A DNA stretch of 64,000 nucleotides from Acidimicrobiia bacterium (GTDB lineage Bacteria > Actinomycetota > Acidimicrobiia > Acidimicrobiales > Ilumatobacteraceae). Position numbers and translations under genes: made by a program. The notes under the pieces were generated by a model. That model had not been told where the DNA came from. It ran no database searches and saw only the letters and a program-made list of their open reading frames with translations. The DNA is taken from contig JBJTBM010000117.1 in NCBI GenBank assembly GCA_046091365.1, forward strand, positions 11,030-75,029, read 5' to 3'. Of this stretch, positions 15,935 through 22,240 are shown in pieces (position 1 is the stretch's first letter; every line of letters starts with the position of its first letter).

Positions 15935-16197
15935 CCACTCATCCTGCCCGATCGGATCGACGTCGACACGGGGCGTTCGGTGGCGGACAGCGAATCGCCC
16001 GGTTCGGGCTGGGCCAGCGAACCGGGCGAGATCCGTGTCGATCGCGCCGGGCGGTGAGGGCCAGGGGGAGGACGGCCCCCACCGCACCAGCGTGAACGGG
16101 GGTCAGTCTCCCGAGGGTCTGTGAAAGGTCCGTGTGGCTTCTGTGCGTTTTGTGTAACAAATCGGGACCGGGACACCGGATCGGCGAGAATCGTCCC

Positions 16198-16884
16198 GTG
16201 CACTCGCTGCTCTTCATCGAAGACGACGACCAGATCAGGTTGGCCCTGCGACTGGCCCTGGAGGATGAGGGGTACGAGGTGCGCGAAGCCGCCGACGGGG
16301 TGGCGGGTCTGGCCGCGTTCCACCAGAGAGAACCCGACCTCGTGCTGCTCGACCTACGGCTGCCCGACATCTCGGGCTTCGAGGTCTGTCGGGCCATCCG
16401 GGCCATGAGCATCGTCCCGATCGTGATGGTCACGGCCGAGACCGACACGATCGACATGGTGTCGGGACTCGAGGCCGGGGCGGACGACTACGTGACGAAG
16501 CCCGTGGTCCCCAAGGAATTGGCGGCGCGCATTCGCGCGCACCTACGCCGGGTGCAGTTGCAGGTGACCGTCGCTCCGACCACCACGGAGACCTTCGGCG
16601 ACATCGACCTGCGACGCGAGCAGGGTCTCGTCTTCAAGGCCGGACGCGAATTGTCGTTGACCAAGACCGAGTTCAACCTCCTCTGCGAGTTCGCCGATCA
16701 CCCGAACGTCGTGTTGTCGCGCGATCAACTGTTGGAGCGGGTATGGGGCTACGACTACCTCGGTGACAGTCGGCTCGTCGACGCGCACGTGCGTCGGTTG
16801 CGCGTGAAGATCGAGGACCACCCCGACGACCCGCGCATCATCCTGACCGTGCGCGGTCTGGGCTATCGGCTCATCCCCGCGTGA
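16198..16884 (+). CDS. mtrA: OmpR-family response regulator, MtrA-like
   Basis: IVMVTAETDTIDMVSGLEAGADDYVTKPVVPKELAARIRAHLRR closely matches remembered MtrA. A winged-helix C-terminus is present. GAGAAT lies 6 nt upstream of GTG 16198. Confidence 0.85.
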   Translation: MHSLLFIEDDDQIRLALRLALEDEGYEVREAADGVAGLAAFHQREPDLVLLDLRLPDISGFEVCRAIRAMSIVPIVMVTAETDTIDMVSGLEAGADDYVTKPVVPKELAARIRAHLRRVQLQVTVAPTTTETFGDIDLRREQGLVFKAGRELSLTKTEFNLLCEFADHPNVVLSRDQLLERVWGYDYLGDSRLVDAHVRRLRVKIEDHPDDPRIILTVRGLGYRLIPA

Positions 16885-18784
16885 TGTTGCGGAGGAACTC
16901 GGCCACCTCGCGGCGGTCGATCGACTTGCGCATAGGGGGCATGGCCGCCATGATGTCGCGCCGGTAACCCTTCACGGCCAGACGCGAGTCGAAGACCGCC
17001 ACCACCCCACGGTCGGAGGCGTTGCGGATGAGACGTCCGGTCGCCTGGGCGAGCAGGGTTGCCGCCCGGGGCAGGTCGATGTCGCGGAACGCGCGGTCGC
17101 CGAGCGCCTCGCGTCGGGCGCTGAGCAAAGGGTCGTCGGGTCGGGGAAACGGGATGCGATCGATCGTCACGAGCGACAACGTGCGGCCGGGAATGTCGAT
17201 GCCTTGGAAGAAACTCGCCGTCGCGAACAGGCACGACGTTTCGTCGTCGCTGAACAATCGTACGAGTTGGGCCCGGGGGAACTGGTTCTGTTCGAAGATG
17301 GTGACGCCGAGTCGTGGTCGGAGTGCTTGCGCGGCGGCTTCCATCGCCTTGTAACTCGTGAAGAGGGCCAATGTGCGTCCGCCGGCGGCCTCGATGAGGT
17401 GGTGCAGTTCGTCGTGCATCGCCGAGCGGAACGCGGGCGCGTTGGGTTCGGGGAGGGATTTGGCGCAGTAGAGAATCGCATTCTCGCCGTAGTCGAAAGG
17501 GCTCTCGACGTTCAGCAGGCTCGTGTCCTCGAGTGGAAGGCCGACGCGGGTCGGCATGTTCGCCGGGATGGTCGCACTGGTCAAGATCGCGGTGTGCTTC
17601 GACCAGATCCCCTCGCGCAGGAACGACGAGACGTCGAGGGGTGCGATGTCGAGCACCGGACGATCGACTCGTCCGCTCACGAACGGCACGAAGGTGGCAT
17701 CGATTCCCAACGCGGCGTTGAGGGTCGCGTCGAGGCGACCGGCGAGTGTCTGGGCGCGCAGTCGACGTTGGGCCGAGTCCTCGTCCTTGGTCTCCACGCG
17801 TCGCAGCGCCTCGAGGGCGGTCGACACCACCCGCACCCCGTTGGCCAGCACCTCGGCGATTGGTCGAGGCAACGGCGTCGACAGACGATTGTTGTGGTCG
17901 GGTGCGAGCACCTCGGTGAGCATCGCACCGACGTCGGTGATCATCTTTTGCAGATCCGGGTCGTCGATGATGCGTCGGACCGCGTTGGCGAAGAAGGTGA
18001 AACTTCCGTCGCCGATCGAGAGCCCGATGGTGCCACTCATCGTGTCCTCGAGACCGTGCGCCTCGTCGACGATCACGATCTCGTGCTCGGGTAGCAACGC
18101 CCCGTCGGATGCGATGTGGTTGCCATAGAGGTGCGTGTTGACGACGATGACGTCGGCCTCGGCGGCTCGGGCTCGGGCCACCTCGGTGAAACACGAGCCG
18201 CCGAAGGGACAGCGGTTCGCCCCGGGGCACTCTTCGCTGCCGACCGACACCGCGATCCGGGCCCGTTCGGAAGGTGCGAAGGCGAGCGAGTCGAGGTCGC
18301 CGCTCGGCGTCGTGGCGGCCCAGGCGACGAGTTGGTCGATCTCGCGTTTGGTCGAGGCGGAGTAATCGTCGAGTTCGAGCAGGGTCGGGGAGTCGTCCTT
18401 GCGACGCTTACTCGCGACTTCTCCGGTCAATTCGGCGACCCGCTGACGACAGACGTAGTTACGACGACCCTTCAGGACCGCCCACGACACCTCGCGACCC
18501 AGGTATTCGCGCAGTGCGTCGACGAGGAACGGCAGATCCTTGGAGGCCAATTGGTCCTGCAGGTTCTTGGTGGCGGTGGCGACCACCGTGCGCTTGCCCG
18601 ACATCATCGCGGGCACGAGGTACGCGATGGTTTTGCCCGTTCCGGTGCCGGCTTGGACGACGAGGTGACGTCCCTCGGTGATGGCCTCCTCGACGGCCAT
18701 GGCCATCTGGCGTTGCCCAGGTCGGCTCTCGGCGCGGGGCAACGCCGACGTGGCGATCTCGAGCGCATCGGACAATCTGGGCAT
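16871..18784 (-). CDS. dinG: ATP-dependent DinG/XPD-family helicase (Fe-S type)
   Basis: 637 aa with QAGTGTGKT and DEAH, a Cys cluster (VCRQ...ECPGANRCPFGGSC), and helicase motifs V/VI. TACGGT lies 6 nt upstream of ATG 18784. Confidence 0.85.
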   Translation of the reverse strand: MPRLSDALEIATSALPRAESRPGQRQMAMAVEEAITEGRHLVVQAGTGTGKTIAYLVPAMMSGKRTVVATATKNLQDQLASKDLPFLVDALREYLGREVSWAVLKGRRNYVCRQRVAELTGEVASKRRKDDSPTLLELDDYSASTKREIDQLVAWAATTPSGDLDSLAFAPSERARIAVSVGSEECPGANRCPFGGSCFTEVARARAAEADVIVVNTHLYGNHIASDGALLPEHEIVIVDEAHGLEDTMSGTIGLSIGDGSFTFFANAVRRIIDDPDLQKMITDVGAMLTEVLAPDHNNRLSTPLPRPIAEVLANGVRVVSTALEALRRVETKDEDSAQRRLRAQTLAGRLDATLNAALGIDATFVPFVSGRVDRPVLDIAPLDVSSFLREGIWSKHTAILTSATIPANMPTRVGLPLEDTSLLNVESPFDYGENAILYCAKSLPEPNAPAFRSAMHDELHHLIEAAGGRTLALFTSYKAMEAAAQALRPRLGVTIFEQNQFPRAQLVRLFSDDETSCLFATASFFQGIDIPGRTLSLVTIDRIPFPRPDDPLLSARREALGDRAFRDIDLPRAATLLAQATGRLIRNASDRGVVAVFDSRLAVKGYRRDIMAAMPPMRKSIDRREVAEFLRNITRG

Positions 18785-18790
18785 CGGGTC

Positions 18791-18796
18791 ACCGTA
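18791..18796 (-). promoter_or_regulatory. -10 element TACGGT for leaderless dinG
   Basis: On the minus strand: TACGGT, a 6-nt spacer, then ATG at 18784. Confidence 0.4.
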
Positions 18797-18843
18797 CCGC
18801 AGGGTCGCCGGACACGATGGGGACGGCGATGGCTCGCGACGAT

Positions 18844-19509
18844 TCAGTGTGCCGACGCACGACGGGCGAGGGCGATCGCGGCCACCAGATCGTCGTGCGA
18901 GTAGTCGGGCCAGGCCGCCTTGGCGAAGTGGATCGGCGCCCCCATCGACTGCCAGAGGAGGAAGTTCGACACGCGGTGTTCGCCCGATGTGCGCACCATG
19001 ACGTCGACGCGTGGAAGGTCCGACTCGTACATCGCGACGTCGAGCGCCGGGACCGTCGGCTCGCGTCCCTCGCGACGCAATCGCTCGGCGGCGTGGGCTA
19101 TCTCGGCGCGGCTGCCGTAGTCGAAAGCCACGGTGAGGGTCATACCGGTGTTCGCGGCCGTGTCGGCGATGGCTTTGCGAATGGCGCGTTGCACGTAGCG
19201 GGGTGTGCGGGCGGTGGGTTCGTCGAACGGACGACCGAGCCAGCGCACCCGGACCCCGAGGTCGTTCAACTCGGCCACCCGTCCGAACAACTTCTCGTGC
19301 AGGCCGAGAATGTGGCGCACCTCGCGTCGCGGTCGCACCCAGTTCTCGGTGGAGAAACCGAAGACGGTCAGGTGGTCGACACCCAGTCGGACCGCGGAAC
19401 GTACCACCGCGGCCAGATTCTCCTCGCCCGCGGTGTGGCCGGCGGTTCGGGGCAGGTCGCGTTGACGGGCCCAACGGCCGTTTCCATCCATGATGCAGGC
19501 GACATGCAC
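18844..19509 (-). CDS. uppS: cis-prenyltransferase (undecaprenyl-diphosphate synthase family), catalytic-type but lacking the C-terminal RXG
   Basis: HVACIMDGNGRWA, GH, FSTENWVRP and RTSGEHRVSNFLLWQ are present. The protein ends ...ALARRASAH. The start at GTG 19509 is supported by TACGGT 6 nt upstream. Alternative in-frame starts are at 19554 and 19590. Confidence 0.85.
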   Translation of the reverse strand: MHVACIMDGNGRWARQRDLPRTAGHTAGEENLAAVVRSAVRLGVDHLTVFGFSTENWVRPRREVRHILGLHEKLFGRVAELNDLGVRVRWLGRPFDEPTARTPRYVQRAIRKAIADTAANTGMTLTVAFDYGSRAEIAHAAERLRREGREPTVPALDVAMYESDLPRVDVMVRTSGEHRVSNFLLWQSMGAPIHFAKAAWPDYSHDDLVAAIALARRASAH

Positions 19510-19515
19510 GGGTGA

Positions 19516-19521
19516 ACCGTA
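19516..19521 (-). promoter_or_regulatory. -10 element TACGGT for uppS
   Basis: On the minus strand: TACGGT, a 6-nt spacer, then GTG at 19509. The hexamer is the same as for dinG. Confidence 0.35.
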
Positions 19522-19570
19522 CCGCCTCGGTCCGTTCGGTCGAAGACACCTCACCGACCACGGGGTGGGG

Positions 19571-19576
19571 CACAAT
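19571..19576 (+). promoter_or_regulatory. -10-like CACAAT for the uppS-like/recO operon
   Basis: CACAAT, a 6-nt spacer, then GTG at 19583. Confidence 0.3.
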
Positions 19577-19582
19577 GGTTCG

Positions 19583-20137
19583 GTGTTCACTCGTCGGGCT
19601 TCCGTTCGGTCCGCTTCCGAGGTCGGGGGCGAACTGCGGCACGCCGTGGTGGTCGGCGGAGAGCTGAGCGAATGGGAGTCCATGTCGGAGTCGGAGTGGG
19701 AGCGACGCGTCGCCCTCATCGGATCGGTGGCATCGCGGCATGGCGCCCGACACCTGTCGGTCCTCCCGTACGGAGCGACGGGTGGCTCGTCGATGCGGGG
19801 ATCGGTCCGTCACGAATCGCACGGGGTGTCGGTCGTCGTCTCCTGGAGCGCCGACGGTCGCGAGCGGATCGCCGCGGCCGTCCGGACGATCGACCCGGCA
19901 CGTGCGATCGACGAGCAAGCGGTCGAGAAGGCGATGCACGGTGAGGCGGGCGAACCTGATCTGGTGGTGGTCCTCGGACCGTCCGACCGGTTGCCTCCCT
20001 CGCTCGTCTGGGAACTCGCCTACAGCGAGTTGGTCTTCGTCGACACGAGTTGGGATTCCCTCGACGCCGAAGCGCTCGACGACGCCTTGGGTGTCTTCCA
20101 TGGACGGGAGCGTCGATTCGGCGGGGTCGATGGATGA
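19583..20137 (+). CDS. degenerate UppS-fold protein that keeps the C-terminal RRFGG but lacks the catalytic motifs
   Basis: It aligns to UppS: LRHAVVVGGELSEWE versus HVAIIMDGNGRWA, and DLVVVLGPSDRLPPSLVWELAYSELVFVDTSWDSL...GRERRFGG versus [35 protein letters not shown]...RERRFGG. Its stop overlaps the recO ATG (ATGA). The start is uncertain (19583 or 19646). Confidence 0.6.
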   Translation: MFTRRASVRSASEVGGELRHAVVVGGELSEWESMSESEWERRVALIGSVASRHGARHLSVLPYGATGGSSMRGSVRHESHGVSVVVSWSADGRERIAAAVRTIDPARAIDEQAVEKAMHGEAGEPDLVVVLGPSDRLPPSLVWELAYSELVFVDTSWDSLDAEALDDALGVFHGRERRFGGVDG

Positions 20138-20898
20138 CGAGCCGCCTGTACCGCGATCGTGGCATCGTCCTGCGCACCTACAAATCCGGTGAGTCGGATC
20201 GCATCATCGTCTTTCTGACCGAGAACAATGGCAAGGTCCGCGCCATCGCCAAGGGGGTGCGTAAGACGCGGTCGAAATTCGGTGGACGGCTCGAACCGAT
20301 GTCTCTGCTTGACCTGCAACTCCACCGGGGGCGCGATCTGGACATCGTCAACCAGGTGGAGACCGTCGACAGTTTGCACGCGGTGTTCGGTGACCTCGAC
20401 TCGATGACCGAGGCGATCGCGACCCTCGAGGCGGTCGATCAGTTGGTGCCCGACCGCGAGCCGGTGGGGAACCTGTTCCGCATGCTCGTCGGAGTCCGCC
20501 GCACGTTGCTCACACGACCGTCACCGCTCGTCGTCCCGGCCTTCCTCTGGAAGTTGCTCTCGTACGAAGGGGTTCATCCGGTCCTCGACCGGTGCTCGTC
20601 GTGCGGAGAGTCCGCCGTCTCGGAGTTCACGCTCTTCGATGTCGCACTCGGTGGCGTGGTGTGCTCGTCGTGTCGCTCGGGGGCCCCGATCTCGGCGGCG
20701 GCACTCGACCTGATGCGCGATGTGCTGGGAGGGAATTTGGGCGACGCCCTCGACCGTGCCCATCATCCCGGAGGCCAGACGCTCGACGACCCGGTGGTCA
20801 ACGAGGTCGCGGCGTTGGCGACGCGAGCCTTCGAGCATCACGTCGAGCGGCGTCTGCGCTCGGTGTCGATCTTCGAACGGCACGAACCGGGTTCCTGA
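20134..20898 (+). CDS. recO: DNA repair protein RecO
   Basis: 254 aa with an OB-fold N-terminus (LYRDRGIVLRTYKSGESDRIIVFLTENNGKVRAIAKGVRK) and a Zn motif CxxC...CxxC. Confidence 0.9.
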   Translation: MTSRLYRDRGIVLRTYKSGESDRIIVFLTENNGKVRAIAKGVRKTRSKFGGRLEPMSLLDLQLHRGRDLDIVNQVETVDSLHAVFGDLDSMTEAIATLEAVDQLVPDREPVGNLFRMLVGVRRTLLTRPSPLVVPAFLWKLLSYEGVHPVLDRCSSCGESAVSEFTLFDVALGGVVCSSCRSGAPISAAALDLMRDVLGGNLGDALDRAHHPGGQTLDDPVVNEVAALATRAFEHHVERRLRSVSIFERHEPGS

Positions 20899-20929
20899 TC
20901 TGCGCGTCACCCCCGTAGCCTTGTCCCTC

Positions 20930-22240
20930 ATGCCGGCCACGGACCTCGAACAGATCGTCAACTTGTGCAAGCGCCGGGGGTTCGTCTACCCGTCGGCCGA
21001 GATCTACGGCGGCTTTCGGAGTTCGTACGACTACGGTCCGCTCGGTTCGCTGATGTTGCGCAACGTGCGCGAGTCATGGGTGCGAACGATGGTGCAGAAG
21101 CGGGACGACGTGGTGTTGATCGACGCCGCGATCCTCGGCCCGCCCCAGGTGTTCGAGGCCAGCGGCCATCTCGCGAACTTCAGCGACCCGCTCGTCGACT
21201 GCAAAAAGTGCAAACAGCGGTTCCGCGAGGATCATCTCGAGAACCCGAGCGTGTGTCCGGGTTGCGGCTCGGAGGGAACGCTCACCGAGGCGCGCGCGTT
21301 CAACTTGATGTTCAAGACCTACGCGGGCCCCGTCGAGGGCTCCGGAGCCGAGGTGTACCTGCGTCCCGAGACCGCTCAGGGCATGTTCGTGAACTTCACG
21401 AACGTCCTGCAGACGAGCCGCAAGAAGCCGCCCTTCGGGATCGCCCAGGTCGGCAAGAGTTTCCGCAACGAGATCACGCCGGGCAACTTCATATTCCGCA
21501 CACGCGAGTTCGAACAGATGGAACTGGAGTTCTTCGTGCCTCCGGCCGAGGGTCCGGCATGGTACGAGTTCTGGTGCAACGCGCGTATGCAGTGGTACGT
21601 CGAACTCGGGATACCGGCCCACATGTTGCGTTTGCGGGCGCACGACGCCGACGAGTTGTCGCACTACTCCGCGGGCACCGCCGACGTGGAGTTCGCATAC
21701 CCGTGGGGTTGGGGCGAGCTCGAGGGCATCGCCCAGCGGACCAACTTCGACCTCAACCAGCATGCGACCCACTCTGGGCAGAAACTCGACTTCTTCGATC
21801 AGTCGACGAACGAGCGCTACGTGCCCTTCGTGATCGAGCCGGCCGCTGGCGTGAATCGTGCGATGGCCGCCTTCTTGTTGGCGGCCTACGAGGAACAAGT
21901 GGTCGGCGACGAGACCCGCACCGTGTTGCACCTCCACCCCCGCCTCGCGCCGTACAAGGTCGCCGTGCTGCCCTTGAGCAAGAAGGACAACCTCACGCCG
22001 GTGGCCCGCGCGGTGTTCGAGTCGCTCGGTGAGCGGTACATGGTCGACTACGACGACACCCAGTCGATCGGCAAGCGGTACCGCCGTCAGGACGAGATCG
22101 GCACCCCGCTGTGCATCACCGTCGATTTCGACTCGCTCGAGGACCACGCCGTGACGATCCGCGACCGCGACTCGATGGAGCAGGTGCGCGTGCCGATCGC
22201 CGACCTCGAGACCGAGGTTCGGGTGCGTCTCGGCTTCTGA
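20930..22240 (+). CDS. glyQS: glycine--tRNA ligase (dimeric GlyQS type)
   Basis: N-terminus IVNLCKRRGFVYPSAEIYGG..YDYGPLG, with class II motifs. TAGCCT lies 8 nt upstream of ATG 20930. Confidence 0.95.
   Translation: MPATDLEQIVNLCKRRGFVYPSAEIYGGFRSSYDYGPLGSLMLRNVRESWVRTMVQKRDDVVLIDAAILGPPQVFEASGHLANFSDPLVDCKKCKQRFREDHLENPSVCPGCGSEGTLTEARAFNLMFKTYAGPVEGSGAEVYLRPETAQGMFVNFTNVLQTSRKKPPFGIAQVGKSFRNEITPGNFIFRTREFEQMELEFFVPPAEGPAWYEFWCNARMQWYVELGIPAHMLRLRAHDADELSHYSAGTADVEFAYPWGWGELEGIAQRTNFDLNQHATHSGQKLDFFDQSTNERYVPFVIEPAAGVNRAMAAFLLAAYEEQVVGDETRTVLHLHPRLAPYKVAVLPLSKKDNLTPVARAVFESLGERYMVDYDDTQSIGKRYRRQDEIGTPLCITVDFDSLEDHAVTIRDRDSMEQVRVPIADLETEVRVRLGF

Follow-up and report, generated by a model that had tools for sequence, protein, structure and literature searches.

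A divergent pair of cis-prenyltransferase genes with reciprocal motif loss beside recO: a candidate heteromeric undecaprenyl diphosphate synthase in Acidimicrobiia

The stretch of DNA analysed here (the window, 64 kb in length) derives from a metagenome-assembled genome (MAG) of an Acidimicrobiia bacterium and contains, next to recO, two divergently transcribed genes that encode a long and a short protein of the cis-prenyltransferase family. The original prediction had described them as a case of reciprocal loss, with one copy retaining the active site of undecaprenyl diphosphate synthase (UPPS, encoded by uppS) but lacking the C-terminal RXG motif and the other retaining this motif without the active site, and had graded the pair as a candidate heteromeric UppS; on the comparative sequence evidence presented below, candidate is also the grade that we assign. 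The coordinates, strands and motifs that had been given for both genes proved to be correct, and the locus is organised as follows:

18844..19509, minus strand: long gene, encoding a UppS-type cis-prenyltransferase (GTG start, 221 amino acids, beginning M-HVACIMDGNGRW)
19510..19582, no strand: divergent intergenic spacer between both start codons (73 bp, by direct reading of the sequence)
19583..20137, plus strand: short gene, encoding a cis-prenyltransferase-fold protein (GTG start, 184 amino acids)
20134..20137, plus strand: ATGA overlap in the sequence, joining the TGA stop of the short gene to the ATG start of recO
20134..20898, plus strand: recO (TIGR00613, 6.6e-36)
16871..18784, minus strand: DinG-like (Helicase_C_2) helicase (PF13307, 3.5e-36; DEAD domain PF00270, 9.1e-12)
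20930..22240, plus strand: glycyl-tRNA-synthetase-type class II synthetase (PF00587 and PF03129), given for context only

The long protein matches the Pfam family PF01255 (Prenyltransf) at 3.1e-61 and 207 bits (cut-off 27) over profile positions 1–209 of 219, and the uppS equivalog TIGR00055 with 186.8 bits (cut-off 109.55) over positions 4–218 of 228: only the last approximately 10 profile positions, which are those that hold RXG, are left unmatched. It is 40–46% identical to the bacterial homodimeric undecaprenyl and decaprenyl diphosphate (UPP/DPP) synthases from E. coli (UppS) and M. tuberculosis (Rv2361c). When both proteins from the window were aligned using MAFFT with E. coli UppS and the canonical actinobacterial UppS P0395 (alignment A3), the long protein was found to retain the DGNGRW loop and the residues equivalent to E. 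coli D26 and R30, S71/N74/W75/R77 (present as FSTENWVRP) and R194/R200/S202 (present as VRTSGEHRVSNF), in line with the catalytic motifs that had been assigned to it, and these catalytic and substrate-binding columns are invariant in 36 orthologues (alignment A2). Because all residues that bind isopentenyl diphosphate (IPP) are kept, the long protein is, judged by its residues, a normal IPP-condensing enzyme. Its chain ends exactly at the position of the RXG arginine (index 38 after FLLWQ), with many orthologues stopping 3–5 residues earlier still, so that the absence of RXG had been noted correctly, whilst the suggestion that RAS stands in its place does not hold. The long protein thus lacks what would be expected of a single-subunit enzyme, namely an RXG motif and an active site united in one chain.

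This loss is consistently found in relatives of the long protein: RXG does not follow the WPD[FY] helix in any of the 120 best listed homologues (67–95% identical), nor is it found in any of the 240 listed homologues, in any complete long orthologue from approximately 76 related genomes or in the homologues P0559, P0530 and P0504 from a second search, the sequences of which were read individually. Restoration of the motif beyond the stop codon of the long gene through read-through or a frameshift could be ruled out, as no RXG-like extension is encoded there in any frame. The prospect that a corrected 3′ end would bring back RXG, which had been named as a potential refutation, has hence not materialised, and the loss is, on these sequences, a trait of the clade and not an error. 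A second motif is affected as well: the tyrosine of AY(A/S)E is replaced by an invariant glycine in the long family, in which the glutamate of this motif is no longer conserved. At three MAG loci (L021, L026 and L030) the long genes themselves are frameshifted or truncated, as seen from split tblastn matches or an early stop after FLLWQAAGAPS; these defects could be assembly errors or real pseudogenes.

The short protein is 100% identical to a 184-residue protein from an Acidimicrobiia MAG in the NCBI database and also matches PF01255, as had been proposed for both gene products, although at 7.6e-13 and 49 bits against the same cut-off and only over positions 112–219 of 219, which extend to the end of the profile. 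A structural model computed with AlphaFold2 (AF2) from a 72-sequence family alignment (A1) reached a mean predicted local distance difference test score (pLDDT) of 88.2 and a predicted template modelling score (pTM) of 0.83, with the order of strands and helices corresponding to that of a trimmed cis-prenyltransferase. Comparison of the short protein with the PDB using Foldseek placed bacterial UPPS structures on top (probability 1.0, template modelling (TM) score 0.55–0.63, E. coli UPPS included), and together with the profile match this supports the same predicted fold for both proteins. The N-terminal alignment of LRHAVVVGGELSEWE against RHVAIIMDGNGRWA was reproduced by MAFFT, which also aligned RHAVVVGGELSEW against RHVAIIMDGNGRW. 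A competing HMMER pairing of "SRHGARHLSVLPYG" with E. coli "PAHGCRHVAIIMDG" was rejected, since MAFFT and the strand order of the AF2 model support the alignment of the original prediction.

On this fold the residues required for catalysis have been lost. The catalytic aspartate is replaced, with an invariant GG where DG would be expected; a deletion of approximately 60 residues, corresponding roughly to S71–T135 of E. coli UppS, removes the FSSENW motif together with product-tunnel helices and a strand; and within the short family R194 is replaced by V or L (V in the protein from the window) and S202 by P, so that of the Arg-Arg-Ser residues only the equivalent of R200 is kept. The short protein consequently exhibits none of the features of catalytic competence, i.e. 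the Mg2+-binding aspartate, the S71–R77 motif, R194 and S202. What it does retain is the dimer-interface segment LPPSLVWELAYSEL, the stretch PDLVVVLG..RLPPSLVWELAYSELVF and the C-terminal RERRFGG. From 1311 homologues of the short protein in the database we examined the motifs of the best 120 (150–224 amino acids, 41–100% identical): all end in the R.RRFGG tail, bar one that carries RRLGG. The residues that are invariant in alignment A1 (P138, L141, W143, E144, L145, Y147, E149, R175, R177, R178, F179, G180 and G181) cluster in the βE–βF linker and the tail and not at active-site positions. Amongst them are Y147 and E149 of the LAY[SAG]E sequence that follows the tryptophan; judged from the alignments, the reciprocal loss thus extends to the AY.E motif, which is kept in the short family and lost in the long one and for which we infer a functional role. 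Over the 120 listed homologues on each side, the reciprocal loss holds throughout the clade and goes far beyond chance.

The ratio of nonsynonymous to synonymous substitution (dN/dS; Nei-Gojobori method, 14 close genome pairs) was 0.03–0.31 for the short gene, as compared with 0–0.16 for the long gene and 0–0.21 for recO. The short open reading frame (ORF) is therefore a real gene under purifying selection with a predicted cis-prenyltransferase fold, and the concern that it might prove to be without conserved homologues can be set aside. Mean distances of 0.35 for the long and 0.90 for the short protein correspond to a 2.6-fold slower evolution of the catalytic subunit.

The distribution of the pair was analysed by scanning GTDB, with a single genome taken for each species, for LVWELAY[SAG]E, a peptide specific to the short family. 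Relatives of the short protein are encoded in at least 413 species-level genomes, with the best 80 of 413 scan matches all stemming from Acidimicrobiia, Ilumatobacteraceae or acIV-type MAGs; these 80 loci and two further ones from contig look-ups form a synteny set of 82. Of the 80 loci with enough upstream DNA, 78 have the long gene ahead of the short gene in divergent orientation, the two being 43–260 nt apart in most related loci, and the usual arrangement is one in which long gene and DinG-like helicase are read in one direction and short gene and recO in the other. Directly downstream of the short gene recO is found in every case (82/82), with a 4-nt overlap at the junction in 20 loci, a 1-nt overlap in 12 and a gap of less than 30 nt in most others, which bears out the ATGA overlap and the coupling of the short gene to recO that had been proposed. 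In 74/76 loci the next gene downstream of the long gene, mostly within 150 nt and on its strand, is a helicase orthologue, whilst glyS follows recO within 400 nt in 53/75. At the classical uppS site downstream of recO, an UppS-like gene was found in none of the 82 loci.

L001, located on a 4.9-Mb contig of GCA_047602055.1, is alone amongst the informative loci in having no long gene next to the short one; its closest relatives are loci with a gap of 0.7–2.1 kb between the two genes. A search with a long orthologue of this subclade identified P0559, an RXG-less homologue from that very contig, approximately 1.05 Mb distant and followed by the helicase at 4 kb; the pair therefore co-occurs even when unlinked. 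The survey of related genomes that had been suggested thus returned the pair throughout, adjacent or on one contig. Within the subclade comprising L037, L041, L055, L058, L063 and L001, a progressive separation of the pair can be followed, from 0.7 to 1.5 to 2.1 kb and finally to approximately 1.05 Mb, with the coupling of the short gene to recO kept throughout.

In the literature, a heteromeric cis-prenyltransferase is defined as an enzyme in which the catalytic subunit lacks RXG and an accessory subunit supplies it. This is the constellation found here, an RXG-less catalytic protein next to an RXG-bearing, non-catalytic protein of the same fold, and the reciprocal pattern had rightly been called the hallmark of such enzymes. 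Our preferred interpretation, to which we assign a probability of roughly two in three, is that the long and short proteins together constitute a heterodimeric cis-prenyltransferase for the synthesis of a polyprenyl-diphosphate lipid carrier. The long subunit would contribute a complete catalytic pocket (the Mg2+-binding aspartate, the Ser/Asn/Trp/Arg motif and the IPP-binding Arg-Arg-Ser) on a chain that stops before RXG, and the short subunit would be a catalytically dead, trimmed copy that keeps the dimer-interface helices, the βE–βF linker and the RRFGG tail. This tail would cross the interface into the long subunit and, with Arg178 and Gly180, supply what the diphosphate/Mg2+ site of the latter lacks, in the manner of Arg292* in the M. 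tuberculosis homodimer and of Arg290 that NgBR provides for DHDDS, the outcome being one composite active site per heterodimer, which would be an obligate one. Since RXG acts in trans, a long-long homodimer would exhibit two active sites, each devoid of the trans arginine, whereas in the long-short heterodimer one site, and only one, would be complete. Dimerisation, complementation in trans, a product length of C50–C55 and an essential role in cell-wall synthesis are what we infer for the pair.

Published work on related enzymes provides the background for this model. The tail of NgBR reaches across the interface between the subunits and forms both substrate sites of DHDDS, the homodimer of which has an approximately 400-fold lower kcat, and the same transverse tail contacts are present in homodimeric enzymes. 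In the M. tuberculosis DPP synthase homodimer (MtDPPS), the RXG residue Arg292 from the counter-subunit binds Mg2+-bound waters, Asp76 and β-phosphates. Mutations in RXG cripple the enzymes from E. coli (UPPS), Giardia, human and Methanosarcina. For eukaryotic cis-prenyltransferases it has been reported that the catalytic subunit evolves more slowly than the accessory one, and the conservation pattern of the short family and its 2.6-fold faster evolution agree with those reported for accessory subunits. All characterised bacterial cis-prenyltransferases are homomeric according to a review from 2026, and full-text literature searching gave us no report of a bacterial heteromeric cis-prenyltransferase. 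Reviews attribute the two-subunit design to Euryarchaeota, from which in this view eukaryotes inherited it, with both the archaeal and the eukaryotic accessory subunits being derived from this group.

The short protein does not appear to belong to this lineage. A profile of the short family (alignment A1) detects bacterial UPPS amongst PDB sequences at 5.6e-20 to 1e-13, as compared with 1.6e-5 for DHDDS and 1.8e-4 for NUS1/NgBR, and NgBR lies outside the top 50 structural matches of the short protein identified by Foldseek. Since the profile scores favour bacterial UPPS, the short protein is to be regarded as a degenerate bacterial UppS paralogue, and its identification as an orthologue of NgBR/Nus1 was ruled out on account of the weaker score of the latter. 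This closer relationship to bacterial UPPS than to NgBR argues for an origin of the pair that is independent of NgBR/Nus1: most likely, the recO-linked uppS was duplicated in an ancestral lineage of the Ilumatobacteraceae/acIV Acidimicrobiia, and the two copies then degenerated in a reciprocal manner. Whether one may go further, and regard the pair as the sole cis-prenyltransferase of these bacteria and thus as an obligate, independently evolved two-subunit undecaprenyl-/decaprenyl-diphosphate synthase for peptidoglycan, the first heteromeric one in Bacteria, is a question on which we consider the odds to be even.

Several points weigh against our interpretation of the pair as the heterodimeric enzyme for the cell-wall carrier. 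In the first place, the pair could be heteromeric and yet specialised, with a canonical homodimeric UppS encoded elsewhere in the genome making the peptidoglycan carrier; many Actinomycetota are generally known to possess two or more cis-prenyltransferases, such as Rv1086 and Rv2361c. We regard this as unlikely, given that the long protein is very conserved, as would be expected for a housekeeping gene (67–95% identity across the clade; dN/dS up to 0.16) and scores above the cut-off of the uppS equivalog, and that the recO-linked uppS site is empty and the 64-kb window contains no UppS-like gene besides the pair. None of the 20 nearest RXG-bearing representative clusters that were looked up carries an Acidimicrobiia label, which is a weak argument in the same direction as many of these clusters are nameless.

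Furthermore, the long protein could be a self-sufficient homodimeric UPP synthase without need of RXG, leaving the short protein as a pseudoenzyme with a function in regulation, in substrate or product binding or in a role linked to recO. DHDDS homodimers do show residual activity, the short gene shares its operon with recO and not with the long gene, and members of the cis-prenyltransferase fold that lack RXG exist outside such pairs, some of which work without it. An example is P0245 (L085, 4248–4994), an RXG-less protein without AY.E that is 51% identical to the long protein: its gene directly follows one for a trans-prenyl diphosphate synthase (PF00348) and has no short partner, from which it is clear that loss of RXG alone does not prove a heteromer. 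A mirror-tree comparison does not discriminate, with a partial r of 0.50 (p 5e-4) for the long and short proteins set against 0.56 for the recO-helicase control. Self-sufficiency of the long protein is nevertheless rather improbable in our estimation: selection in the short family holds precisely those elements that would serve a partner (the RRFGG tail and the interface linker), all genomes examined contain both genes, whether in synteny or apart, RXG is needed in every tested cis-prenyltransferase that elongates with IPP, and the long protein, with its IPP-binding residues complete, has the appearance of an enzyme of this normal type. Finally, an artefact, be it truncation of the long gene by a sequencing or assembly error, for which the frameshifted genes at the few MAG loci mentioned above might be quoted, or decay of the short ORF as a pseudogene, is already refuted by the comparative data: RXG reappears neither in listed homologues or complete orthologues nor past the stop codon, and the short gene combines a dN/dS well below 1 with presence in at least 413 genomes and a confident predicted fold.

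The nearest RXG-bearing relatives of the long protein are approximately 45–46% identical to it by BLASTP (47–49% in the phmmer table), and nearly all of the nearest canonical representatives exhibit AY.E and R.RR[FY]G at a fixed spacing. Where their clusters have named sources, these are Streptomyces, Gaiellales, Thermoleophilia, Propionibacteriaceae, Brevundimonas, Devosia and similar. The classical order of recO followed by uppS, which had been cited for comparison, applies to P0395 (L083/L084, 7273–8798), the nearest canonical relative, in which RXG is present: a 1-nt overlap joins stop and start codon there, and coupling of recO and uppS therefore occurs in both gene orders. At this locus a gene for a GNAT acetyltransferase follows, overlapping the 3′ end of uppS. 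P0245 and the likewise RXG-less P0330, which is encoded beside a glycosyltransferase gene on a 2.7-kb contig, were considered as further bacterial pairs and rejected, there being no partner gene at either; both probably belong to different, specialised enzymes, a terpenoid enzyme being probable in case of P0245.

As regards expression of the locus, the helicase gene lies on the same strand as the long gene, 59 nt downstream of it, and the two probably form one operon. On the other side, recO is co-transcribed with the short gene upstream of it, and the ATGA overlap points to translational coupling of the two. As the helicase follows the long gene (in 74/76 loci) and recO the short gene, each half of the putative synthase appears to be co-transcribed with, and thus tied to, a DNA-repair gene. 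The 73-bp spacer presumably carries the promoters for both operons; a scan of positions 18600–21100 for the sigma-70 consensus and for terminators gave no match, such a scan being uninformative for a high-GC actinobacterium. Each of the two GTG starts is preceded at a distance of 6 nt by a TANNNT-like hexamer within the spacer, which reads TACGGT (minus strand) for the long gene and CACAAT for the short one. Both mRNAs may be leaderless. Leaderless mRNAs are common in Actinomycetota.

Downstream of recO, the synthetase gene fills the site that is taken by uppS in canonical Actinomycetota. A gene for an OmpR-type response regulator (Response_reg and Trans_reg_C; 16132–16884, plus strand) is convergent with the helicase gene, the 3′ end of which it overlaps over 14 nt, and two-component genes near recO were also observed at L001 and L083/L084. 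Two loci from records titled "MAG: Bifidobacterium breve" (L046 and L059; CAMDER010000062.1 and CAMDCI010000001.1) carry the Acidimicrobiia-type cluster of helicase, long gene, short gene and recO; with a recO that is 76% identical to that of the window, the organism name looks wrong.

If our interpretation is correct, a two-subunit enzyme that evolved independently in bacteria would break the rule that bacterial cis-prenyltransferases are homodimers, the two-subunit design having so far been characterised only in eukaryotes and some archaea. The pair would also offer a clean natural case in which duplication, degeneration and complementation have locked a homodimer into an obligate heterodimer, as well as a small, soluble and anchor-free model of the DHDDS/NgBR mechanism that should be easy to express and crystallise; RXG mutations in DHDDS/NgBR cause human glycosylation disease. 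Annotation would be affected too, with the current name of the short protein going no further than "undecaprenyl diphosphate synthase family protein" and that of the long protein presenting it as self-sufficient. The acIV/Ilumatobacteraceae hosts are abundant aquatic actinobacteria, widespread in lakes, soils and the sea.

Amongst known systems, the heteromeric trans-prenyltransferases show a likeness to the pair: in mint geranyl diphosphate synthase (GPPS, large and small subunits LSU/SSU) and the medium-chain hexaprenyl and heptaprenyl diphosphate (HexPP/HepPP) synthases, an inactive duplicated paralogue is likewise the obligatory partner of a catalytic subunit, although the all-α fold is unrelated and the mechanism different, which makes this an analogy only. 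The eukaryotic enzymes DHDDS (hCIT)/NgBR (NUS1), yeast Rer2/Srt1-Nus1 and plant CPT-CPTBP/Lew1 also combine an RXG-less catalytic subunit with a non-catalytic, RXG-bearing subunit of the same fold, and share with the long and short proteins a catalytic subunit that is much more conserved than the accessory one. In contrast to NgBR, the short protein is devoid of an N-terminal transmembrane region, and the long subunit is without the C-terminal helix-turn-helix of DHDDS, so that tetramerisation is not expected; the anticipated product is a C50–C55 bacterial carrier and not dolichol, and the genes of the pair are adjacent and divergent in a bacterial chromosome. The archaeal enzymes MM_1083/MM_0618 and MA3723/MA4402 from Methanosarcina and Af1219/Af0707 from Archaeoglobus are, like the proposed enzyme, prokaryotic, soluble two-component systems comprising an RXG-less catalytic subunit and an RXG partner without a transmembrane domain, and they make medium-chain carriers of 8–12 isoprene units. 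These belong to a different domain of life, and with the short family being nearest to bacterial UPPS the origin of the pair is apparently separate. With the homodimeric enzymes E. coli UppS and M. tuberculosis Rv2361c, finally, the long subunit shares every catalytic residue, and in these homodimers RXG is provided in trans by the counter-subunit; linkage of uppS to recO is common to the pair and to Actinomycetota, albeit that the order here is short gene followed by recO and not recO followed by uppS. Whilst each chain of the homodimers combines an active site with RXG, so that a dimer has two sites, the pair described here would divide these functions between separate chains, with one site per dimer.

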